Part shown: positions 14,384-26,312 of the stretch, in pieces | Layout of the letters: every line of letters starts with the position of its first letter | How positions within the stretch are numbered: position 1 is the stretch's first letter | Assembly: GCA_024277355.1 (NCBI GenBank) | Contig: JAJRVL010000004.1 | Span: forward strand, 330,001 to 362,000 | Source: an archaeon | GTDB lineage: Archaea; Iainarchaeota; Iainarchaeia; Iainarchaeales; 1-14-0-10-31-34 | Reading direction: 5' to 3' | Length of the DNA: 32,000 nt | Notes under the pieces: generated by a model | Told to the model about the DNA's origin: nothing | What the model saw: the letters and a program-made list of their open reading frames with translations, nothing else | Databases searched by the model: none | Made by a program: the position numbers and the translations under genes

Positions 14384-14683
14384 CTATTTTTTCAATGGAC
14401 TTGGACAGTTTGTTACATTATCCAGATCACACATGCAGGATCCATCAGAAAAAGATCCATCATCATTTTCATGCGCATCTTGAGAACTGCAGTCTTTTCC
14501 TGTGCAAGTTACTTCTGAACCATTAAGACATTTTGCAGTTACTGTTGCGTCTAATCCAAATTCTACTGGCCCATCAACAACCGGTTCATCCTGAACTGCT
14601 GCATCAACATTACCTGAATAAAACCCAGAAAAAGCTAACGCAAAAACAGCAATAACTCCAATCACTAAAAATTTATTTTTCAT
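14384..14683 (-). CDS. Small secreted cysteine-rich protein (paralog 2)
   Basis: 99 aa with signal-peptide-like N-terminus MKNKFLVIGVIAVFALAFSGFYSGNVDA and six Cys, ending in CPSPLKK. GGAGAGTGA RBS 4 nt upstream of the ATG (7 nt after the GGAGAG core). Confidence 0.7.
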   Translation of the reverse strand: MKNKFLVIGVIAVFALAFSGFYSGNVDAAVQDEPVVDGPVEFGLDATVTAKCLNGSEVTCTGKDCSSQDAHENDDGSFSDGSCMCDLDNVTNCPSPLKK

Positions 14684-14706: not shown

Positions 14707-15003
14707 TTACTTTTTAAGAGGACTTGGACAATCAGTTCTCTTGTCGTCACATTTACAACTGCCATCATGATAATCGCCATCAGAATCTTGATATGCATCG
14801 TTTGCACTGCATTTGTTTCCTGAACACGACACAGTATCCCCATTAATACACTTTGCTGTTGCTGTTGCATCTAATCCAAATTCAACTGAATCTTCTAAAA
14901 CAACAGGATCCTGCAATGTTGCTTCTACATTACCTGAATAAAACCCAGAAAAAGCAAAAGCAAAAACAGCAATAACTCCTATTGCTAAAATTTTAGTTTT
15001 CAT
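14707..15003 (-). CDS. Small secreted cysteine-rich protein (paralog 1)
   Basis: Colinear with paralog 2 (IGVIAVFAFAFSGFYSGNVEA ... VEFGLDATATAKC ... DGSCKCD ... CPSPLKK), with the same GGAGAGTGA RBS. The start at 15003 (MKTKIL) is chosen by alignment to the paralog; the track extends to 15015. Confidence 0.7.
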   Translation of the reverse strand: MKTKILAIGVIAVFAFAFSGFYSGNVEATLQDPVVLEDSVEFGLDATATAKCINGDTVSCSGNKCSANDAYQDSDGDYHDGSCKCDDKRTDCPSPLKK

Positions 15004-15206
15004 TTTTTCCATCACTCTCCTTTAAAATATATTCCTATTTCGTTTGAGAAATCTTTTTAAACGGTGTACAAAAAAATCAAATGTCTTTTTAAATAGTTTA
15101 CAAAAAAAAGCAAATACAAAAAAAACAGCAATTAGAAATAGTTTTCAGCAAAACACCCCTTTTTATTTCTTTTTTTTCACAAATATAAAGAAAGGAAGTG
15201 AGAAAA

Positions 15207-18812: not shown

Positions 18813-18963
18813 TTCATCGCCTCACTATTTAATATATACAATATAAGTAGTCTATCTTAAATTTTTAAAACAAAAAAACTTTTAAAACAAATGCCCTGCA
18901 ATTAAAGAAATAAACCTATTTTATTAAATTTCCCTTAAATAAATATTAATAGTAACTGTTAAA

Positions 18964-19020
18964 ACAGCAGGACTGAATGAAATGAAGTCGTGCACGCATG
19001 TCAACTGGGCGTGACAGTTG
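18964..19020 (+). repeat. GC-rich tRNA 5' leader element L1, copy A (abuts tRNA-Ser)
   Basis: ACAGCAGGACTGAATGAAATGAAGTCGTGCACGCATGTCAACTGGGCGTGACAGTTG. It is 57/57 nt identical to the reverse complement of 26256-26312. It ends in a hairpin CAACTG-ggcgtga-CAGTTG whose last G is tRNA position 1. Confidence 0.85.
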
Positions 19021-19176
19021 CAAGGGTGGCAGAGTGGTTTAATGCGCGGGCCTGCTAAAACCTTTTTAGAAAAAAGGTTTATCAAAAACAGGTAAACTTT
19101 TAGGGAAAAAAAGTTTATCAAAATTGCAGTTAGCCCGTGCCCTTTGGGCGCGCGAGTTCGAATCTCGTCCCTTGCG
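19020..19176 (+). tRNA. tRNA-Ser (anticodon GCU), class II, with 74-nt intron at 37/38 (19058-19131)
   Basis: Manual fold. Acceptor GCAAGGG/CCCTTGC; anticodon stem CGGGC/GCCCG with loop CTGCTAA; long variable arm GCCC-ttt-GGGC. T arm GCGAG-TTCGAAT-CTCGT and discriminator G. BHB: CTGC (19052-55) pairs GCAG (19126-29), flanked by 3-nt bulges TAA and TTA. Confidence 0.9.
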
Positions 19177-19305
19177 TCAAACGTTTCGCCGTTTGAGCAC
19201 GATGCACGACATCGCTTCGCTCAGTCGAGCTGTCAAAACGTAACAGCTCTATCGAGCTGAAAGCGAAGATAGTGCACACGCGTCAACCGAGTGAACGGTT
19301 GTTTT
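19177..19305 (+). other. Structured GC-rich spacer between tRNA-Ser and tRNA-Leu (trailer hairpin plus L1-like element L2)
   Basis: Helices seen: TCAAACG/CGTTTGA (19177-96), TGCAC/GTGCA (19203-07/19272-76), CTTCGCT/AGCGAAG (19215-21/19262-68), GAGCTGT/ACAGCTC (19227-33/19243-49) and CAACCG/CGGTTG (19284-89/19296-301). The 3' half aligns to L1. Confidence 0.6.
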
Positions 19306-19537
19306 GCAGGAGTAGCGAAGTGGTCAAACGCGCCAGACTCAAGAAAACTCTCTGAAAAAAAGTTTAATTAGAAACTTCAAAAAGCCTTCAAAAACTTCCC
19401 ACAAACTTTTTAGTAAGAAAGTTTTTCCCGAAATCAACTTATCAAAAAAATTCGCTTCAATGCGAAAGATTGATTTCAGGATTTTGGGGTTATCTGGTGA
19501 CTTAGTGTCTTCGGGGGTTCGAATCCTCCCTCCTGCA
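19306..19537 (+). tRNA. tRNA-Leu (anticodon CAA), class II, with 148-nt intron at 37/38 (19344-19491)
   Basis: Manual fold. Acceptor GCAGGAG/CTCCTGC; anticodon stem CCAGA/TCTGG with loop CTCAAGA; variable arm GAC-ttagt-GTC. T arm GGGGG-TTCGAAT-CCTCC and discriminator A. The BHB is imperfect (CTCA against GGGG/TGGG). Confidence 0.85.
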
Positions 19538-19594
19538 TCGCGCTTTCGAGCGCGAGAACCGAAAAACGTCCAACCTATTGCTTTGCAATAGGTT
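19538..19594 (+). other. Two tRNA-Leu trailer hairpins
   Basis: TCGCGC-tttcga-GCGCGA (19538-55) begins immediately after the discriminator. A perfect 10-bp stem AACCTATTGC-ttt-GCAATAGGTT follows (19572-94). Confidence 0.5.
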
Positions 19595-19649
19595 ATAAAT
19601 TTTCAAAAAAAAGTTTAATCAAAAAGTTTATTCTATAAAAAAAATAATT

Positions 19650-19967
19650 TTATTTTAATTTGGGTTTTATTATTCTTTTTTTTGGAGTTTTAGTTTTTTT
19701 TCTTTTCACAGGAGTTAAGGGAACTCCATTTACTAATCTGCTATGCAAACGCAGTTTGTTATGGGTTTTATGCATTGAAGTAATCCAAATTTTTCTTTGC
19801 TTCCATAATCTTTTATTTGATTTTTTAAAACCTATTTCTTCAGCTAATTCTTCAAGCATTAATGCAAATTTTTTCGCATCCCTTTTTTTTGATAAATCTA
19901 AATAAAAAGTTTTAATTAAAAATTCTTTTTCTTGAGGAATTAATTCTGCAAGTTTTCCTTTTTTCAT
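19650..19967 (-). CDS. Hypothetical protein with basic C-terminal tail (TPVKRKKTKTPKKRIIKPKLK)
   Basis: 105-aa ORF. No domain recognised. Confidence 0.5.
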   Translation of the reverse strand: MKKGKLAELIPQEKEFLIKTFYLDLSKKRDAKKFALMLEELAEEIGFKKSNKRLWKQRKIWITSMHKTHNKLRLHSRLVNGVPLTPVKRKKTKTPKKRIIKPKLK

Positions 19968-20053
19968 ATTTCTAATTTAATTCAAGAATTTATTTAATTC
20001 TTTTGTTTTTATGCAAACAAAAGATTAATATTCTTTTATTGTGTTTTTTTTGC

Positions 20054-20710
20054 ATGGTTGATTTAAATTCATTGATTGAAACATTATTGCCTGAGTTTTA
20101 TGCTAAAGCACCTGAATTAGGTTTGTTTACTTTATCTATTGTGCTTTATGGAGTATTAATTTTTGAATTTTATCGTTTTGTTGCAAAAAGAGATGTGTTT
20201 GGTTTTGATATTGAAAAATACAAAAGAGGAACCGAAGGAATTACTTCAAAAATATTTAATTTTTTGTTAGGCGTAATAAAATACGGAGCAATTTTCCCGT
20301 TTTTTGTTTTTGTCTGGTTTGCAGGATTTTCTTTTTTATTATTTTTTATGGCAAAAAACTTAGGAACTTCAGAAATACTTACTGTTTCAGTTGTTTTTGT
20401 TACTGCAATAAGAGTTGCAAGTTATTATAATGAAAGTTTAAGCCAGGATTTAGCTAAACTAATCCCTTTTGCATTATTAGGTGTAGCAATAATTGAACCC
20501 AACTTTTTTTCTTTTAAATTAGTTGAAAGCAGATTAAATGAAATTTCTTTGTTTATTATTGAAATTACAACTTATTTTTCTTTTATTGTAGTAGTTGAAT
20601 GGATTTTAAGAATTTTATTATCAATTAAATTTTTAGTTTTTGGAATAAACAAAAAAGAAATAGTAAAAGAAGAACTAAAAGAAGAAATTGAAAAGATAGT
20701 GAAAGACTAA
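20054..20710 (+). CDS. Membrane protein of unknown function
   Basis: About 5 hydrophobic helices and a charged C-terminal tail (KKEIVKEELKEEIEKIVKD). Its stop overlaps the start of the permease gene (TAATG). ATG at 20054 is preferred over the track TTG at 20003 because AAAAGATTAATATT lies about 20 nt upstream. Confidence 0.6.
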   Translation: MVDLNSLIETLLPEFYAKAPELGLFTLSIVLYGVLIFEFYRFVAKRDVFGFDIEKYKRGTEGITSKIFNFLLGVIKYGAIFPFFVFVWFAGFSFLLFFMAKNLGTSEILTVSVVFVTAIRVASYYNESLSQDLAKLIPFALLGVAIIEPNFFSFKLVESRLNEISLFIIEITTYFSFIVVVEWILRILLSIKFLVFGINKKEIVKEELKEEIEKIVKD

Positions 20711-22017
20711 TGCAGGAAAAATTAAGGCTTAAAAGAGAATTAAGTTTAACTGAAGCAGTTTTATGCGGAATAGGAATAATTCTTGGAGCAGGAATTTATG
20801 TTATTATTGGAAGAACTGCAGGATTAGCAGGAAATACTTTATGGATTTCCTTTTTGATTGCAACAATTGTTGCTTCTTTTACTGGATTAAGTTATGCTGA
20901 ATTAGCTTCAAGATATCCAAAAGCAGGAGCAGAATTTGAATACACAAAAAATGCTTTTGATAAACGAATTGGTTTTTTAGTTGGCTGGCTTACAATTATT
21001 GCAGGAATAGTTGCAGCCTCAGCAGTAGCAATAGGCTTTGGAGAAAATTTACTGAAATTAACTTCTGTACTTTCATTACCTGAAATTCCAATAATTTTTT
21101 CTGCAATAACTTTAATTGTTTTAAGTTCATTTATTATTTTTTGGGGAATAAAACAGTCAGTAAAAATTGCAATAATTTTTACTTTAATTGAAGCATTAGG
21201 TTTATTATTAATTATTTTTATTGGAATTCCATTTATTGGTTCAGTTGATTTAATGGAAATGCCACCTGCAGGATTAAGCGGAGTGTTAAGTGGAGCAGCA
21301 TTAATTTTCTTTGCGTTTATTGGCTTTGAAGAAATGGTGAGAATGAGTGAAGAAACAAAAAATCCAGAAAAAACAATTCCAAAAGCATTAATGTTAGCTA
21401 TAGCAATTACCTCAATTTTATATGTTTTAGTTGGAATTTCAGCAGTAAGTGTTGTTCCATGGGAAGTGTTAAGCACAAGTCCTGCTCCTTTGTCTTTAGT
21501 TGCAGAAGAAGTTTTTGGTTCAAACGGAGGATTGCTTTTATTAATTATAGTTTTGTTTTCTACAGCTAATACAGTTTTGTTGGTTTTACTTGCAGCTTCA
21601 AGAATTGTTTACGGAATCGGAATAGATAAAGAACTTCCAAACATTGTAGCAAAACTTCATCCAAAAACAAAAACGCCTTATGTTGCAATAATTTTAATTA
21701 TGTTTTTATCAGCTTTATTTGCTTTATTTGATATTAGTTTTTTAGCTAAAACAGCAGACTTTGTTTTGTTTATTATTTTTATTATAATTAATGCAGCAGT
21801 AATAATGCTTAGAATAAAACAACCAGAAATAAAACCAAAATTTATGATTCCATTTAACTACAAAAACATTCCTTTAACAGCAGTATTAGGAATTTTTTCT
21901 GTTTTAATTTTAATAGGCCATATTGAATTAGATGTTATTGCATTGTCTTTAGGTTTAAGTTTTATGGGATTAATTTTTTATGAAATAAGCCACAAACTAA
22001 ACAAAAACAAAATTTAA
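20710..22017 (+). CDS. APC-superfamily amino acid/polyamine permease
   Basis: 435 aa with about 12 TM helices. GAGIYVIIGRTAGLAGN and FAFIGFEEM are typical of the APC family. Confidence 0.88.
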   Translation: MQEKLRLKRELSLTEAVLCGIGIILGAGIYVIIGRTAGLAGNTLWISFLIATIVASFTGLSYAELASRYPKAGAEFEYTKNAFDKRIGFLVGWLTIIAGIVAASAVAIGFGENLLKLTSVLSLPEIPIIFSAITLIVLSSFIIFWGIKQSVKIAIIFTLIEALGLLLIIFIGIPFIGSVDLMEMPPAGLSGVLSGAALIFFAFIGFEEMVRMSEETKNPEKTIPKALMLAIAITSILYVLVGISAVSVVPWEVLSTSPAPLSLVAEEVFGSNGGLLLLIIVLFSTANTVLLVLLAASRIVYGIGIDKELPNIVAKLHPKTKTPYVAIILIMFLSALFALFDISFLAKTADFVLFIIFIIINAAVIMLRIKQPEIKPKFMIPFNYKNIPLTAVLGIFSVLILIGHIELDVIALSLGLSFMGLIFYEISHKLNKNKI

Positions 22018-22113
22018 TTGTTTTTTGGTTTTTTCTTCTAAAAGAAAATTATTTATATTAGAATAGAGTTCTATTACATCATCAATATACAAATATTGAT
22101 AAGAGGGGTTGAA

Positions 22114-24954
22114 ATGAATTGGAAAACTAAACTATTATTTATAACTGTATTTTTTGTATTTTTTTCGTTTACTGTTTCTGCTGAATGCGGAAATGGTGTT
22201 TGTGACAAAAATGAATCTTATGAAAGCTGTCCGGCAGACTGTGATTCACCAACCCCTGACTGCAGTATAGAATCAGGAATTCCTGAAAGTGGATGTATTT
22301 GCTATGGACAAGAAAAATATGATGGCTGGTGTTGTACTGGTTCATGGCAAAATTATGAATGCGGCTCAGTTTGTGGAAACAGTGTATGTGAAGGTGGAGA
22401 AGAAAATACTTGTCCAGGAGACTGTGTAGTATGCGGAGACGGAAAATGCGAAGGAGGAGAAGATCAATATAGCTGTTCTGCTGATTGCGGAAGCCCTGCT
22501 CCTTGGTGTGGAGACGGAACATGCAATGAAAATGAAACACAAGACACCTGTCCGCAAGACTGTGGAACCCCAAGTGTTTGTGGAAATAGTGTTTGTGAAA
22601 CAGGAGAAGAAATAGGATGTCCTGGAGACTGTTATACCTGTGGAGACGGAATATGCAACGGAAGCGAAACACCTGAAACATGTCATGATGATTGTAATTC
22701 AAATGAAATACCTGAAACATGCGGAAATAATTTTTGTGATTCAGGAGAAACAAAAGAAAACTGTCCGGTAGATTGTTATGAAAGCAACTGCGGAAACGGA
22801 ATATGTGAATCATACAACGGAGAAGATTCATATAATTGTCCAGTAGATTGTGAAACTTATTCAGAATGCGGAAACCAAATTTGTGAAGAAGGAGAAGAAA
22901 TAAATTGTCCTTCAGACTGTGGAGAATGCGGAAATAATTTTTGTGAAACAGGAGAAGAAATAAATTGTCCTGGAGACTGCTTTAAATGCGGAGATGGAAT
23001 ATGCAATGGAAGCGAAACAGAATTTACTTGTCATGATGATTGTCCGCCTTCAACTTGCGGAAATGGAACATGTGATGAAAGAGAATGGGAAAAAAACTGT
23101 CCTCAAGATTGCAGTGTACAAGCAGAATGCGGAGATGGATTTTGTGACTGGCATTTAGGAGAAAACCCTGAAAGCTGTAGTGTTGATTGTAGTTATGAAC
23201 CAAAATGTGGAAACAGAATATGTGAACAAGGAGAAACCGCAGAAAATTGTCAAGATGACTGCAGACCAGGAGGATTTTGTGGAGATGGTTATTGTGGAAT
23301 AGAAGAAAACCCAGAAAATTGTTATGATGACTGCGGAGCAGTAGTAAAACCCCCAATAAATAATTGTCCTCCAGACGAAGCAATACAAGAACTAAAAAAT
23401 AAATGTGAAGACTATGACATGGAATTCAGTTTAAGACAAGGACATAATGGATGCCTTTATGGAGAATGCAATACAGGCCGTAAACCTCCTCAAGAAGAAG
23501 ATTGCAAAGAAATAATTGAACCAAATGGTTTTGTAAGAAGAATATGTGAAAACCAATGTTTTCCTGAACCACTAGAAATAAAACAAAGATGTATTGAAAG
23601 CAGAGGAACTCCAAAACAAAGCACTGATTTTAGAGGATGCGAAATTACAATATGTGAATATGGAGATTCAGGCGGAAGAGACTTTATTGGAGAGTGTTCA
23701 GACAGAGAAAAAATAGATGACAAAGCAAGAGAATGTAAAAAACAAGGATTAAAGCCAATAATTGAAAGAGGATTTAATGGATGTGAATATGTTAAATGTG
23801 CAGGTGAATTTAGAAGAGATGAATGTCCTGTTCATGGCTTTGAAGAAATTGAAAGAATAAGAAAAGAATGCAATGCAAAAGGCGGAGAATTAATTAAACA
23901 CTTTGATGACAGAGGATGCGGAATACCGCAATGCATTATGGAAGGAGACAGAGAACAATATTGTAAAGACGTCCCAAGAGAAGCATTTAACAGATGCGAA
24001 GAAGAAGGCGGAGAATTAATTATACAAAAAGACGAACAAGGCTGTGTTGTATTTGAAACATGCAATAGAAGAGGAGACAGAAGATTTGAATATGATTCAA
24101 TAGAAGAAATTCCAGATGTAACACAATTACTTTCAATTGCATTAAAATTAGAAGACTTAAAAGTACAATTAGCAAAAGTAAAAAATAAACTAAATTTGCT
24201 TGCAGAATACTATAAAGAAGAAAATGATTCAGAAAATGCAGAAAGATTAGAAAAAGCTGCTTCAATGTTTGGTTCAATTGAAGATGACATTGAAAGAATA
24301 AAAAACAAAATAAAAGAAAATGCAGACAATATGAATGAAAGAAGTGTAATTGAAATAAAAAAAGAAATTAAATTAATCAGAGAAAAACTAAAAGACATTT
24401 TGTTTGTTTTGTTAGGAGAAAAAGAAACCAGAAAAGATTACACTAAAGGAGACTGCGGAACAGATGAATATTGTTTCCAGAAAAATTATGCAATATGCAG
24501 TCCAACAAAATACACTCATATAGATTCATACCAAGATAACCAAAAATTTCTTGCAGAAATAAAAGGAATAGAAAACGGAAAATGCATTATGACAGTTACA
24601 TCTGAATTTGCAGGACAAACTCTTTCAATGAGATGTGAAGACAGCAAATATATTGATTCAGATGTAGGACAAAAAATGAAAGAAATATGCAAAGGACCAT
24701 TAATAGACATGATAAAACAAGAAGACCCAACAGGTCCCGACTATGAACCAGAATACAAAAAAGACTACCAAAGAGATTACAGAGGAGACTATAAAGGATA
24801 TAAAGAAGATTTAGGGAGAGATATTGAAGGATGCAAAGAAACATTTGATGAACAAGGAAACAAATATATTACTTGTCCGGCAAAAGAAGAAACCAAAACA
24901 AATCCTTATAATCCAATGACAGGAAATGCATTAATAGGAATTAAATGGAGGTAA
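22114..24954 (+). CDS. Large secreted/surface cysteine-rich modular protein
   Basis: 946 aa from ATG 22114 (GAGGGG RBS; the track TTG is at 22096). Signal or anchor MNWKTKLLFITVFFVFFSFTVSA, then 15 CG[ND]xxC-x(8-11)-C[PSHQY]xDC modules, five copies of a second Cys module and a coiled-coil segment. These are followed by a C-terminal Cys domain and a DY-rich charged stretch. Confidence 0.85.
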   Translation: MNWKTKLLFITVFFVFFSFTVSAECGNGVCDKNESYESCPADCDSPTPDCSIESGIPESGCICYGQEKYDGWCCTGSWQNYECGSVCGNSVCEGGEENTCPGDCVVCGDGKCEGGEDQYSCSADCGSPAPWCGDGTCNENETQDTCPQDCGTPSVCGNSVCETGEEIGCPGDCYTCGDGICNGSETPETCHDDCNSNEIPETCGNNFCDSGETKENCPVDCYESNCGNGICESYNGEDSYNCPVDCETYSECGNQICEEGEEINCPSDCGECGNNFCETGEEINCPGDCFKCGDGICNGSETEFTCHDDCPPSTCGNGTCDEREWEKNCPQDCSVQAECGDGFCDWHLGENPESCSVDCSYEPKCGNRICEQGETAENCQDDCRPGGFCGDGYCGIEENPENCYDDCGAVVKPPINNCPPDEAIQELKNKCEDYDMEFSLRQGHNGCLYGECNTGRKPPQEEDCKEIIEPNGFVRRICENQCFPEPLEIKQRCIESRGTPKQSTDFRGCEITICEYGDSGGRDFIGECSDREKIDDKARECKKQGLKPIIERGFNGCEYVKCAGEFRRDECPVHGFEEIERIRKECNAKGGELIKHFDDRGCGIPQCIMEGDREQYCKDVPREAFNRCEEEGGELIIQKDEQGCVVFETCNRRGDRRFEYDSIEEIPDVTQLLSIALKLEDLKVQLAKVKNKLNLLAEYYKEENDSENAERLEKAASMFGSIEDDIERIKNKIKENADNMNERSVIEIKKEIKLIREKLKDILFVLLGEKETRKDYTKGDCGTDEYCFQKNYAICSPTKYTHIDSYQDNQKFLAEIKGIENGKCIMTVTSEFAGQTLSMRCEDSKYIDSDVGQKMKEICKGPLIDMIKQEDPTGPDYEPEYKKDYQRDYRGDYKGYKEDLGRDIEGCKETFDEQGNKYITCPAKEETKTNPYNPMTGNALIGIKWR
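22186..23334 (+). repeat. Tandem array of 15 short four-cysteine modules (in-CDS repeat)
   Basis: I counted 15 units, for example CGNGVCDKNESYESCPADC, CGNSVCEGGEENTCPGDC, CGDGICNGSETPETCHDDC and CGDGYCGIEENPENCYDDC. Confidence 0.85.
23365..24063 (+). repeat. Five copies of a second, longer Cys module (in-CDS repeat)
   Basis: The pattern ..[KR]xC-x3-G-x(7-11)-GC-x(3-5)-C recurs: KNKCEDYDMEFSLRQGHNGCLYGEC, KQRCIESRGTPKQSTDFRGCEITIC, ARECKKQGLKPIIERGFNGCEYVKC, RKECNAKGGELIKHFDDRGCGIPQC and FNRCEEEGGELIIQKDEQGCVVFETC. Confidence 0.7.
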
Positions 24955-24959
24955 TGGAA

Positions 24960-25151
24960 ATGAAAAAAATTATAATAGGAATTTTAATTTTAGTTTTAAT
25001 TGTTTCTTTTTCAGGATGCTTTGAACAAACACCAGAAGCAAAAGAAAAAATTACTTCAAAAGAAGAAGCATCAAAAACAACAGTTGAAATAAGCGAAGAC
25101 TTAGATGGATTAAGCGGAAGCTTAAAAGAATTAGATGACGAATTAGGTTAA
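24960..25151 (+). CDS. Small acidic lipoprotein-like protein
   Basis: MKKIIIGILILVLIVSFSGC has a lipobox-like FSGC. A GGAGGT RBS lies 7 nt upstream, inside the end of the preceding gene. The track start at 24945 overlaps the upstream stop. Confidence 0.5.
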   Translation: MKKIIIGILILVLIVSFSGCFEQTPEAKEKITSKEEASKTTVEISEDLDGLSGSLKELDDELG

Positions 25152-25230
25152 ACTAATTCTTTTCTTTTTTTATTTTAAAAAAACAATTTGATTTTAATTA
25201 TTTTTATACTTAAATTATAACAGTGATTAA

Positions 25231-26124
25231 ATGATTACAGCATTAGAACTATTTGTAAGCTTTGAACAAGCCCTTCCTGCAATAACAACAATACTGGTTT
25301 TAGGAATAGCTTACATTATATTCAAAGCATTAATTAGTTTAACAAAAAAAAGATTATTAAAAAAAGCAAAAACAAAAAAACAAATAACAAACATTGAATT
25401 ATTTTCAAGAATACTAAAATACATTGTTTTAATTTTTTTAATACTTACAGCAATCTTGTCTTTTTCCGGTTCATGGGCAGGATTAGGAATTGGAATTGGA
25501 CTGCTTTCTGCAGCAATAGGTTTTGCATTACAAAAACCAATAACAGGAATAGCAGCATGGATAATGCTGATAACTAAACGTCCATTCCAGATAGGAGACC
25601 GAATAATTATAGAACCCCTAAAAGGAGATGTAAAAGATATTACACTAACACATGTTTATTTGAAGGAAGTAGGCGGACAAATTGAAGGAGATGACTCATC
25701 AGGAAGAACTATTTTAATCCCAAACTCTATTTTATTTGAACAAAATATAATTAATTATTCAAGCCAAAAAGATGAAATTGTTTTAGACCAAGTTATTTTT
25801 ACTGTAACATATGAAAGCGATTTAAATAAAGCAATCCAAATAGCATTAAAATCAGCAAAAAAACATGTAAAAGAATTTATTAAAAATCCAAAAAAAATTC
25901 CTTTTGTCAGAACACATTTTCAGTCAAGCGGAATAGATGTTAAAATAAGATATTTTGTTCCAGTCAAAAAAATGAGAAAACTTTCAAGCATAATAACCCA
26001 AGAACTTCATGCAGAAATAATGAAAACAAAAGAAGTAGAATTTGCTTATCCTCATACAGAAATATTATTTAAAGACAAAAAAACAATCAGAAAATTCAAA
26101 AACAAAAAACTAACTGATTACTAA
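25231..26124 (+). CDS. Small-conductance mechanosensitive channel (MscS family)
   Basis: 297 aa with three N-terminal TM helices. KRPFQIGDRIIIEPLKGDVKDITLTHVYLKE...ILIPNSILFEQNIINYS is followed by a normal alpha/beta C-terminal domain. Confidence 0.85.
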   Translation: MITALELFVSFEQALPAITTILVLGIAYIIFKALISLTKKRLLKKAKTKKQITNIELFSRILKYIVLIFLILTAILSFSGSWAGLGIGIGLLSAAIGFALQKPITGIAAWIMLITKRPFQIGDRIIIEPLKGDVKDITLTHVYLKEVGGQIEGDDSSGRTILIPNSILFEQNIINYSSQKDEIVLDQVIFTVTYESDLNKAIQIALKSAKKHVKEFIKNPKKIPFVRTHFQSSGIDVKIRYFVPVKKMRKLSSIITQELHAEIMKTKEVEFAYPHTEILFKDKKTIRKFKNKKLTDY

Positions 26125-26126
26125 TT

Positions 26127-26139
26127 AAAAAAAAGAAAA
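26127..26139 (-). terminator. Oligo-T tract downstream of tRNA-Asn
   Basis: The minus strand reads TTTTCTTTTTTTT directly after the discriminator base, which fits archaeal oligo-T termination. Confidence 0.4.
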
Positions 26140-26254
26140 CGCCCCAGGTCAGACTTGAACTGACGACCTGTCGGTTGCTGCTTTTTGTTTTTGATAAAAC
26201 TTTTCTTAAAAGTTTTGTTAACAGCCGACTGCTCCACCACTAAGCTACCGGGGC
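26140..26254 (-). tRNA. tRNA-Asn (anticodon GUU) with 43-nt intron at 37/38 (26176-26218)
   Basis: Manual fold. Acceptor GCCCCGG/CTGGGGC; D arm GCTT-agtggtg-GAGC; anticodon stem GTCGG/CCGAC with loop CTGTTAA. T arm GTCAG-TTCAAGT-CTGAC and discriminator G. BHB: CTGT pairs GCAG (one G-U), with bulges TAA and CAA. Confidence 0.9.
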
Positions 26255-26255
26255 A

Positions 26256-26312
26256 CAACTGTCACGCCCAGTTGACATGCGTGCACGACTTCATTTCATT
26301 CAGTCCTGCTGT
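26256..26312 (-). repeat. GC-rich tRNA 5' leader element L1, copy B (1 nt upstream of tRNA-Asn)
   Basis: The reverse complement is identical over 57 nt to 18964-19020. Confidence 0.85.

Follow-up and report, generated by a model that had tools for sequence, protein, structure and literature searches.

The stretch analysed here is a window of 32,000 nucleotides (nt) from an archaeon of the Iainarchaeota (NCBI GenBank assembly GCA_024277355.1, contig JAJRVL010000004.1, positions 330,001 to 362,000), and its subject is a short GC-rich element found directly upstream of tRNA genes, called the module below. The 57-mer ACAGCAGGACTGAATGAAATGAAGTCGTGCACGCATGTCAACTGGGCGTGACAGTTG is present in just two exact copies in the window, at 18964-19020 on the forward strand and at 26256-26312 on the reverse strand (57/57 positions, 0 mismatches). 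The same exact search returned 0 matches in 100 shuffles of the window, in agreement with the original prediction that one copy is the perfect reverse complement of the other. Copy 1 precedes a tRNA-Ser gene and its last G is G1 of that tRNA, whereas copy 2 precedes a tRNA-Asn gene and stops one base (T26255) ahead of its G1. The earlier statement that the element ends 0-1 nt before tRNA position 1 is hence essentially right, with a 1-nt overlap for Ser and a 1-nt gap for Asn, and both copies have the orientation of their tRNA, as had been claimed. The 60 nt located 5' of these two genes reach 47-50% GC versus 23-37% GC per kb in the window, which bears out the GC richness noticed at first, and the two tRNA loci are the sole GC-rich non-coding islands in the 32 kb examined. 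The flanks beyond both 57-nt copies are AT-rich and cannot be aligned; they had been described as unrelated, but a small CUGU...ACAG hairpin is common to the two outer flanks and finishes within the first bases of the 57-nt block.

The gene for tRNA-Ser(GCU) extends over 19020-19176 (+) and carries a 76-nt intron at the canonical position 37/38 (Rfam RF00005, 42.9 bits; intron option of ARAGORN). Its trailer (19177-19245, +) is a mirror-image module that has 76% identity with the leader in reverse complement (family D20), in which hairpin B' (19178-19195, CAAACG-UUUCGC-CGUUUG) begins one base past G73 and is followed by AGCACGA-UGCAC and then by an A'-type arm. Next comes a diverged leader module of tRNA-Leu (19246-19301, +), composed of hairpin A (19246-19275, GCUCUAUC...GAUAGUGC), the core GTGCAC-ACGC-GT (19272-19283) and hairpin B (19284-19301, CAACCG-AGUGAA-CGGUUG), whose stem harbors a compensatory change and is separated from G1 by four U residues. 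The tRNA-Leu gene itself (19306-19537, +; anticodon read as CAA, intron of about 138 nt) was overlooked by Rfam, both at the gathering threshold and at E<=1, and by ARAGORN with default settings. The intron mode (ARAGORN -i, 19305-19539) retrieved it with the anticodon mis-assigned as CAG; the orthologue in a syntenic genome (locus L008) is called Leu-CAA. The trailer of tRNA-Leu (19538-19594, +) belongs to a second hairpin-pseudoknot type, with a hairpin at 19538-19555 (UCGCGC-UUUCGA-GCGCGA) whose loop UUUCG pairs with CGAAA at 19560-19564; further on lie a conserved terminal hairpin (19572-19594) and a stretch rich in U. At the other locus, tRNA-Asn(GUU) (26140-26254, -; 44-nt intron; RF00005, 52.4 bits) is preceded by copy 2, and its trailer is a plain T-run without module. 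Default ARAGORN reports no tRNA in the window owing to the introns, and its intron option yields all three; tRNA-Ser and tRNA-Asn each cover model positions 1-71 of 71 in one locus and tRNA-Leu is complete according to ARAGORN. The window contains four to five modules in 32 kb, every one at tRNAs, and none was found in its approximately 30 other intergenic regions.

A putative TATA box of the Ser-Leu transcription unit, TTTTATTAAA, lies at 18919-18928 (+), 36-45 nt 5' of the module. It is kept in the orthologous tRNA-Ser locus L014, a similar box occurs at the same distance from the module in L032, and it is similar to a promoter-like motif, AAAAAGTTTTATATA, that stands ahead of a gene starting near 165. 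The TATA-like boxes originally placed roughly 15-25 nt upstream correspond to a second AT-rich, TATA-like stretch, 14-29 nt upstream of the 57-nt block, but the conserved box is the more distant one. The latter would put the transcription start about 10-20 nt upstream of the module, and, judging from the positions of these boxes, the 57-nt block is very probably a transcribed 5' leader. All three tRNA introns also hold AU-rich palindromes of the form AAAACTTTTTAAGAAAAAGTTTTATCAAAAA (19058-19088, 19344-19374, and 26175-26219 on the reverse strand), which is the local promoter motif resembling a B recognition element and TATA box, T5 runs included. The same form is encountered between two minus-strand genes (196-226) and past the terminator hairpin of tRNA-Leu (19595-19625). 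An intron possibly serving as terminator and promoter is reminiscent of a split gene kept in one locus.

Relatives of the element were searched with the pattern GTGCAC-N4-GTCAAC-YG-N5-8-CR-GTTG over contigs of one genome per species and over metagenome contigs, the data spanning 32 kb from the present genome and, for each related locus, no more than 15 kb. The species-representative contigs gave 20 loci, eight of them from archaea of the DPANN group and the rest bacterial matches. The eight comprise three loci from Candidatus Iainarchaeum or other Diapherotrites (L001, L005, L012), one from a Micrarchaeota (L020) and four from unclassified archaeal metagenome-assembled genomes (L002, L008, L014, L017). 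The metagenome contigs gave 29 further loci, about 18 of which are AT-rich and DPANN-like and exhibit the full element. The scan of relatives that had been proposed to probe the prediction therefore finds the element in 8 DPANN genomes and about 18 metagenome contigs, and these provide 27 distinct modules and 17 distinct cores of 30-31 nt. A scan of viral contigs returned one match, located inside an apparent coding sequence and devoid of hairpin A and pseudoknot, that is, a chance match. Rfam 15 (gathering threshold and E<=1) recognized only tRNA in the window and nothing at 18964-19019, 19177-19305 or 26256-26312; in 19 related loci it recognized tRNA and large-subunit rRNA only. Literature searches by keyword and by exact sequence retrieved no description of the module. 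By these Rfam and literature searches, the module is a previously undescribed conserved folded RNA of small DPANN archaea, and the earlier remark that no archaeal tRNA leader element of this kind had been described holds, nothing comparable having been encountered in either.

The module is predicted to consist of a hairpin A, a pseudoknot of 3-5 bp and a hairpin B, in the order hairpin A, linker AC-N4-GU, hairpin B, a gap of 0-4 nt and the mature RNA. Hairpin B has a CAACNG/CNGUUG stem and a 6-7-nt loop complementary to CACNN at the foot of hairpin A, on which the pseudoknot would stack. In copy 1, hairpin A corresponds to 18967-18993 (GCAGGAC...GUCGUGC, with tandem G.A in its upper part), the pseudoknot joins CACGC (18993-18997) to GCGUG (19009-19013) in the loop of hairpin B, and hairpin B (CAACUG/CAGUUG) occupies 19002-19020, ending on the G shared with tRNA-Ser. 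The terminal hairpin CAACTG-GGCGTGA-CAGTTG of the original prediction is indeed present at 19002-19020 and in the minimum-free-energy fold, but it forms merely one part of a larger pseudoknotted fold. Hairpin A was predicted in all 24 modules examined. It measures 19 nt in one clade, where the G.A motif is lacking, and 27-35 nt in the clade of the window, where tandem G.A lies inside it and its upper stem is small and capped. Its stem sequence varies (GCACGGC, GCACAGC, GCACGAG, GCUCUAUC, GCUCCAUC, GCAGGAC, GUACUAC and others).

The evidence for this fold comes from covariation among the 17 cores (alignment A1). Pair 17-27 of hairpin B is UA in nine cores, CG in six and UG in two, and is unpaired in none. 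In the pseudoknot, pair 7-21 occurs as GC (6), UA (5), AU (4), CG (1) and UG (1), again with no unpaired core, and pair 8-20 as GC (9), CG (5), UA (1) and UG (1), with one core unpaired. Neither the observed covariation score nor the paired fraction was reached in any of 500 shuffles, and slid registers gave 18-46% paired versus 91% in the proposed structure. The three core pseudoknot pairs are all present in 16/17 DPANN cores versus 1/18 chance bacterial or viral matches to the pattern, a test that is not circular because the pattern had left N4 and the loop free. Folding energy by itself is not significant (z = -1.0 for the 57-mer, z = +0.4 for the extended Asn leader), and the case for the fold rests on covariation because thermodynamics alone is unremarkable. 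When the two strands of the GC-rich tRNA flanks were compared, the tRNA strand was the more stable in 22 cases versus 10, by 2.1 kcal/mol on average (mean -2.1 kcal/mol; Wilcoxon p = 0.003), and G.U pairs in stems and pseudoknots are found on the tRNA strand. Better folding of this strand together with its G.U pairs therefore points to selection on RNA, beyond a mere DNA palindrome.

Several other structural readings were considered and set aside. An alternative hairpin of the centroid fold (CAUGUC/GGCGUG) is not kept in other core types. Cross-pairing between B' and B through CAAC/GUUG was rejected, as stem variants within one unit are often incompatible and covariation is within hairpins. 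Inspection for box C/D or kink-turn motifs revealed tandem G.A (UGA/GAA) in hairpin A of the window's clade, and neither a 3-nt bulge nor terminal C/D boxes. C/D box RNA, kink-turn, integron attC site and ends of IS200/605 elements were all discarded, the defining feature being absent or variable among homologues. Hammerhead, pistol, hatchet and hepatitis delta virus-like ribozymes gave no Rfam hit; the CUGA-UGA strings and the distance to +1 vary, and the mirror copies are complements.

A covariance model of the core (R1), which had likewise been suggested at the outset, was built and gave 35 hits at E <= 0.002 in the window and 23 archaeal loci. Seventeen of these 35 end -1 to +4 nt from a tRNA 5' end, and modules precede tRNAs for Ser, Leu, Asn, Ile, Arg, Pro, Val, Ala and Gly. 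Mirror copies, that is reverse complements, start 0-5 nt past tRNA 3' ends (for example in L012, and in L045 past an apparent tRNA that ARAGORN does not call). Other mirror copies stand directly past position 37 in the introns of tRNA-Gly(GCC) (L002, L034) and tRNA-Gly(CCC) (L020, L027). In L020 the intron is built of a mirror module and a sense module, in that order, with six bases complementary to the anticodon after them. We considered reading the tRNA-Gly genes of L002 and L020 as split tRNAs and rejected it, ARAGORN -i and Rfam giving complete, intron-containing genes. One sense copy ends 22 nt 5' of the start of 23S rRNA (L049). The claim of a tRNA leader element consequently stands for tRNA 5' ends, but it is too narrow, since the module is also located at 3' ends, in tRNA-Gly introns, before 23S rRNA and in gaps between protein genes. 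Among the latter copies, a B'-A'-A-B unit in L031 (3388-3481) extends from within the stop codon of an apparent glyA to about 30 nt before an apparent folD, and a copy in L005 (4560-4674) follows an apparent PAN ATPase gene, these three gene identities having been assigned by eye from the translated sequence. Module units or related hairpin arrays between protein genes were seen at L005 4560-4674, L048 3450-3665 and L021 2150-2305. Measured to +1, hairpin B lies at -1 to +4 nt, but at 22 nt for the 23S rRNA and at 60 nt in L023. The hairpin had been said to abut an RNase P-type cleavage site; such variable spacing argues against the hairpin fixing cleavage.

On both sides of the tRNA, the design is a hairpin next to the mature end whose loop pairs with the distal flank. 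An independent trailer family, UCGCGN-loop-NCGCGA with a 4-nt linker and a 5-nt partner, has the same design as the leader module, with loop/partner combinations such as UUUCG/CGAAA, UUCAG/CUGAA and CUGCU/AGCG. In the alignment of seven trailers, from which one further trailer was left out, 96% of the pair cells are paired, the covariation was reached in 0/500 shuffles and six U.G pairs lie on the tRNA strand. These second-type trailers occur in the window (19538-19594, +), in L049 (207-265) and in L002, L008, L014, L032 and L038; downstream of them there is often a conserved terminal hairpin, AACCUAUUGC-UUU-GCAAUAGGUU, with a stretch rich in U. Another family of hairpins, GGAGGUAUCGGAACCUAAGGUUCUGAU, was observed at tRNA-Ser 5' ends in L023 (13329-13388) and L037 (8350-8410), and in mirror form past tRNA-Leu in L008 (2800-2827, -). 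Among the tRNAs of the related loci, a tRNA-Gln(CUG) in L012 (5928-6038) has an apparent AU-rich intron of about 32 nt at a non-canonical position in the D-loop and is mis-called by ARAGORN as a suppressor tRNA with a 16-nt intron.

Two related loci, L008 and L014, share synteny with the window (amino-acid identity of about 80%), and the window therefore falls within the group of genomes with the module (lineage of Iainarchaeum). In L008, tRNA-Ser is inverted relative to the flanking genes, and the CAAACGTTTCGCCGTTTGAGCACGATGCAC module that stands at the 3' end of tRNA-Ser in the window stands at its 5' end (31/33 bases identical). An L57-type leader is found there on tRNA-Leu, the outermost pair of its hairpin B being replaced in a compensatory manner (GAACUG/CAGUUC). 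L014 has its tRNA-Leu in inverted orientation and upstream of tRNA-Ser. The order of tRNA-Ser and tRNA-Leu and the way they face are not the same in the three intervals (window 18950-19650; L008 2700-4330, -; L014 4400-5100), and modules lie at the breakpoints. Leader types are exchanged between Ser and Leu among the three syntenic genomes, identical cores occur in sense and mirror orientation in different genomes as well as in genomes of 31% and 61% GC, and core type is independent of tRNA identity (three types on Ile-UAU). The modules, shuffled, flipped and common to several genomes, are therefore old; they can change places between leader and trailer and have often been exchanged.

The two identical 57-bp copies (18964-26312) are inverted and enclose 7.2 kb with tRNA-Ser, tRNA-Leu, five open reading frames (ORFs) and tRNA-Asn, and tRNA-Ser and tRNA-Asn both point inward from the leader copies at the ends of this segment. 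Recombination between the copies would therefore invert the segment with neither tRNA disturbed. The 57/57 identity is best explained by concerted evolution, through gene conversion or inversion between the copies 7.2 kb apart. It is unrelated to any Ser- or Asn-specific role, and we read it as recent homogenisation within an old family because relatives put the same leader type on other tRNAs. Function or very recent copying had been offered as the two explanations of the identity; the module is constrained and exhibits compensatory changes across many DPANN genomes, and it is not merely a recent copy.

Genes near the tRNA loci are ordinary chromosomal ones (IMPDH, FtsZ, an amino-acid permease, MscS and an OB-fold protein). 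No transposase was seen among the 10 ORFs adjoining the tRNA loci of the window, and no candidate module-binding protein was identified in the window. Elsewhere in the window, a 952-aa ORF (22096-24954, +) without Pfam match and with local GC above that of the genome contains many Cys-rich repeats of about 20-24 residues (CGNxxCExGE...CPxDC; families D1-D5). Two adjacent ORFs of 99 and 102 aa (14384-14683 and 14707-15015, -) share a 190-nt repeat with 79% identity (D3) and form an apparent tandem paralogue pair.

The comparisons above establish the family, its fold, its position at mature ends and its evolutionary shuffling. As for its role, we propose, with a probability of about 0.45, that the module is a self-folding end-cap and insulator on the discarded flank of stable-RNA precursors. 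DPANN archaea of the Iainarchaeota and Micrarchaeota kind would place it in precursor segments that are thrown away, with hairpin B against the mature end. During synthesis, the flank beside the tRNA would fold on itself into a compact hairpin locked by the pseudoknot, so that it could neither intrude into the fold of the tRNA nor pair with other flanks. The pseudoknotted hairpin would block exonucleases arriving from the distal side and leave the end of the acceptor stem cleanly exposed. We infer that the module is transcribed, protects the precursor and is then removed, by RNase P on the 5' side, by RNase Z on the 3' side and by the splicing endonuclease in introns. All five RNase P protein subunits were reported in at least one member of the Diapherotrites (PMC4919917); these proteins and the variable spacing fit removal by the ordinary end-processing enzymes, and a scenario without RNase P is not needed because of that report.

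Several observations weigh against the end-cap. A minority of copies lie between protein genes without any RNA gene (L031, L005, L048, L021, L026). The loci were retrieved by the motif itself, so that diverged copies are under-sampled and the position counts are skewed to strict-core copies. Among about 17 tRNAs that did not drive retrieval, approximately 6-7 have a leader module according to a reading of their flanks; about 10 have none and are directly preceded by an AT-rich, promoter-like region instead, and the module is therefore not required for tRNA maturation in general. A role in structure alone offers no obvious reason for the identity of the stem sequences (GUGCAC, CAAC/GUUG), and of entire 30-nt cores as well, between genomes with GC contents of 31% and 61%, nor for the use of identical cores in both orientations. 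The strictness with which stem sequences, and whole cores in either orientation, are conserved is what the end-cap idea explains least well. Finally, a hairpin stacked on the acceptor stem could hinder RNase P rather than help it.

Other explanations were weighed against the same data. A functionless local duplication, in which a 57-bp segment was recently copied once beside a second tRNA, would account for the perfect identity of just two exact copies between unrelated flanks, but is refuted by the third, diverged copy and the mirror copies in the window and by homologues in other genomes, dozens in number, that show compensatory substitutions, the leader of the orthologous tRNA-Ser in L014 being one. 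Another explanation is a processing stem or split-gene handle, in which leader and trailer would form a helix in cis or in trans that the splicing endonuclease cuts, possibly via circular intermediates. The leader and trailer of tRNA-Ser in the window are inverted repeats that co-fold at -39.0 kcal/mol versus -19.7 kcal/mol apart, the minimum-free-energy structure of the whole precursor enclosing the tRNA by a helix of about 55 bp. The tRNA-Leu of L008 also exhibits strong leader-trailer pairing, the tRNA-Gly introns are made of a trailer-type and a leader-type module, and one module stands ahead of 23S rRNA. However, cognate pairing is strong in only two of the nine tRNAs with GC-rich flanks on both sides, the cognate ddG is the best one in just two of nine cases, and the cognate trailer ranks fifth or worse of nine partners in six of them; mirrored A-type trailers pair with almost any leader, with no gene-specific complementarity. 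The predicted Ser helix has no bulge-helix-bulge; its one bulge, of 4 nt (G73-U-C-A), is confined to the trailer strand, and mismatches are scattered along the helix. A trailer module is altogether missing from tRNA-Asn, all three tRNAs of the window are complete genes, and hairpins and pseudoknot covary within modules rather than between partners. Leader-trailer pairing is, on these predicted structures, a by-product of a nearby mirror module and not a conserved feature, and we regard a processing stem as very improbable. Hardly more credit can be given to a functional by-product RNA, in which a released leader (5'-triphosphate, hairpin A, pseudoknot, hairpin B, 3'-OH), trailer or intron would act in trans while the tRNA provides the processing signals. 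A fold so compact, GC-rich and pseudoknotted, with hairpins closing the released ends, would withstand exonucleases, sequence conservation is strong and includes the loop types, and in every context the module falls in a fragment cut free; against this, mirror copies are complementary RNAs for which no common sequence-specific function in trans is possible, and the module has neither promoter nor terminator of its own.

An unlikely possibility is that the module is a selfish palindrome, a DNA element resembling repetitive extragenic palindromes (REP) and REPINs or MITEs (miniature transposable elements with inverted repeats), that spreads or is homogenised as DNA, is tolerated in discarded RNA (leaders, trailers, introns and 3' UTRs), and whose fold is a by-product of DNA palindromy. 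This would suit the identical cores in both orientations in different genomes, the 100% identical copies of the window, the B'-A'-A-B inverted pairs similar to REP doublets, the copies right past stop codons (apparent glyA-folD in L031, after the apparent PAN ATPase in L005) and the modules at rearrangement or inversion breakpoints between syntenic genomes. Yet the four to five modules of the 32 kb are all at tRNAs and absent from the approximately 30 other intergenic regions, and a DNA insertion is not expected to abut exon boundaries so precisely. The pseudoknot covariation, the G.U pairs and better folding of the transcribed strand, and a conservation across phylum-level lineages that differs from species-specific REPs speak in the same direction, as do the lack of a transposase among the 10 ORFs near the tRNA loci, of a real copy in viral contigs, and of target-site duplications or flanking direct repeats by eye in the window and L031. 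Rather unlikely, but deserving somewhat more attention, is a recognition handle, bound by a dedicated DPANN-conserved protein or ribonucleoprotein (endonuclease, chaperone or ligase cofactor) that would mark boundaries, direct processing and read the stem sequences. Stems and linker (GUGCAC, GU, CAAC...GUUG) are invariant across distant lineages, a few discrete core types are common to several genomes, hairpin B is always on the side of the mature end, the linker AC-N4-GU is found in either orientation, and proteins commonly bind tandem G.A such as that seen in hairpin A of the window's clade. Conversely, hairpin B keeps no constant distance from +1 (from -1 to +4, then 22 nt for 23S rRNA and 60 nt in L023), the mirror copies present complementary loops and another strand topology that one protein would have to accept as well, the clade with a short hairpin A lacks the G.A motif, and the window yielded no candidate protein. 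A bolder version, which we hold to be improbable, makes the modules universal end-tags of an undescribed DPANN-wide RNA maturation system, in which a conserved factor would read the pseudoknot-locked hairpin beside any mature segment, be it at a tRNA 5' or 3' end, an exon-intron junction or an rRNA end. If so, with a tag that functions in either orientation, RNA genes could be flipped, shuffled, interrupted (an intron being a trailer tag plus a leader tag) or split without loss of expression, and the tags would supply the mechanism, missing so far, that links continuous tRNA genes with intron-containing and split ones.

The genomes of DPANN archaea are tiny and their RNA processing is unusual, with split tRNAs, many introns and, in Nanoarchaeum, the loss of RNase P. 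Placed at tRNA ends, in tRNA introns and before 23S rRNA, and in both orientations, the module suggests an unrecognised layer in the making or protection of stable RNAs. It provides a sequence handle for tRNA genes that standard tools overlook, such as the Leu gene described here, and a handle on why the tRNA genes of these lineages are so easily inverted, interrupted and rearranged. Even as no more than a selfish palindrome that is tolerated, it would, by the literature searched, be the first family of REP type to be described in DPANN.

Split tRNAs are among the closest parallels. Leaders and trailers of split and tri-split tRNAs in Nanoarchaeum equitans and Caldivirga maquilingensis are homologous to tRNA introns of their relatives (PMC10714607, on Fujishima et al., 2009). 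The module is similar in being GC-rich at tRNA exon boundaries in an AT-rich archaeal genome, in serving as the same type in leader, trailer and intron, and in the mutual complementarity of leader-type and trailer-type modules in some cases. It differs in that the tRNAs are complete here, the module is universal rather than gene-specific and self-folds into a pseudoknotted structure, pairing of cognate leaders and trailers is not conserved, and its sites include positions 1 and 73, beyond 37/38. Processing stems of archaeal rRNAs and tRNAs contain a bulge-helix-bulge, two 3-nt bulges on opposite strands 4 bp apart, which the splicing endonuclease cuts. The module resembles them by its inverted repeats around stable RNAs, by the copy 5' of 23S rRNA and by the long helix predicted for tRNA-Ser, but that predicted helix is without bulge-helix-bulge, pairing is not general and the conserved structure is intramolecular.

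Resemblances also extend to bacterial and viral elements. REP, bacterial interspersed mosaic elements (BIME) and REPINs are extragenic imperfect palindromes of bacteria, often arranged as inverted doublets. The module shares with them a short, GC-rich, imperfectly palindromic nature, a location in non-coding transcribed DNA and sometimes right past stop codons, and inverted doublets of the B'-A'-A-B kind (window spacer, L031, L040, L020, L008); like them, it is a plausible protector of RNA ends that is prone to recombination and homogenisation. Unlike them, it has a low copy number in the 32 kb examined, a strong association with tRNA ends, a pseudoknot and conservation across phyla, and no REP-associated tyrosine transposase (RAYT) was seen among the 10 ORFs near the tRNA loci of the window. 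MITEs have terminal inverted repeats and a target-site duplication; module units have inverted halves, and no flanking direct repeats were noticed by eye at L031 or in the window. Viral exonuclease-resistant RNAs (xrRNAs) and the H-type pseudoknots of frameshift sites block exonucleases or are mechanically stable. In the module too, a hairpin loop pairs with the adjacent flank and puts a knot on the side from which an exonuclease would approach, though sequence and detailed structural homology are absent. The boxA, boxB and boxC elements are antitermination boxes of leaders and spacers in bacterial rrn operons. They are likewise conserved elements repeated in the leaders and spacers of stable-RNA operons, but they have another sequence and structure and no counterpart to the mirror or intron copies; to our knowledge, archaea lack NusB. 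For split tRNAs, bulge-helix-bulge processing stems and REP, BIME and REPINs alike, at least one defining feature was tested and found absent from the module, which is akin to structured precursor flanks and to extragenic palindromes, a member of none of them, and a real feature of the way stable RNAs are built in these archaea rather than a chance duplication.

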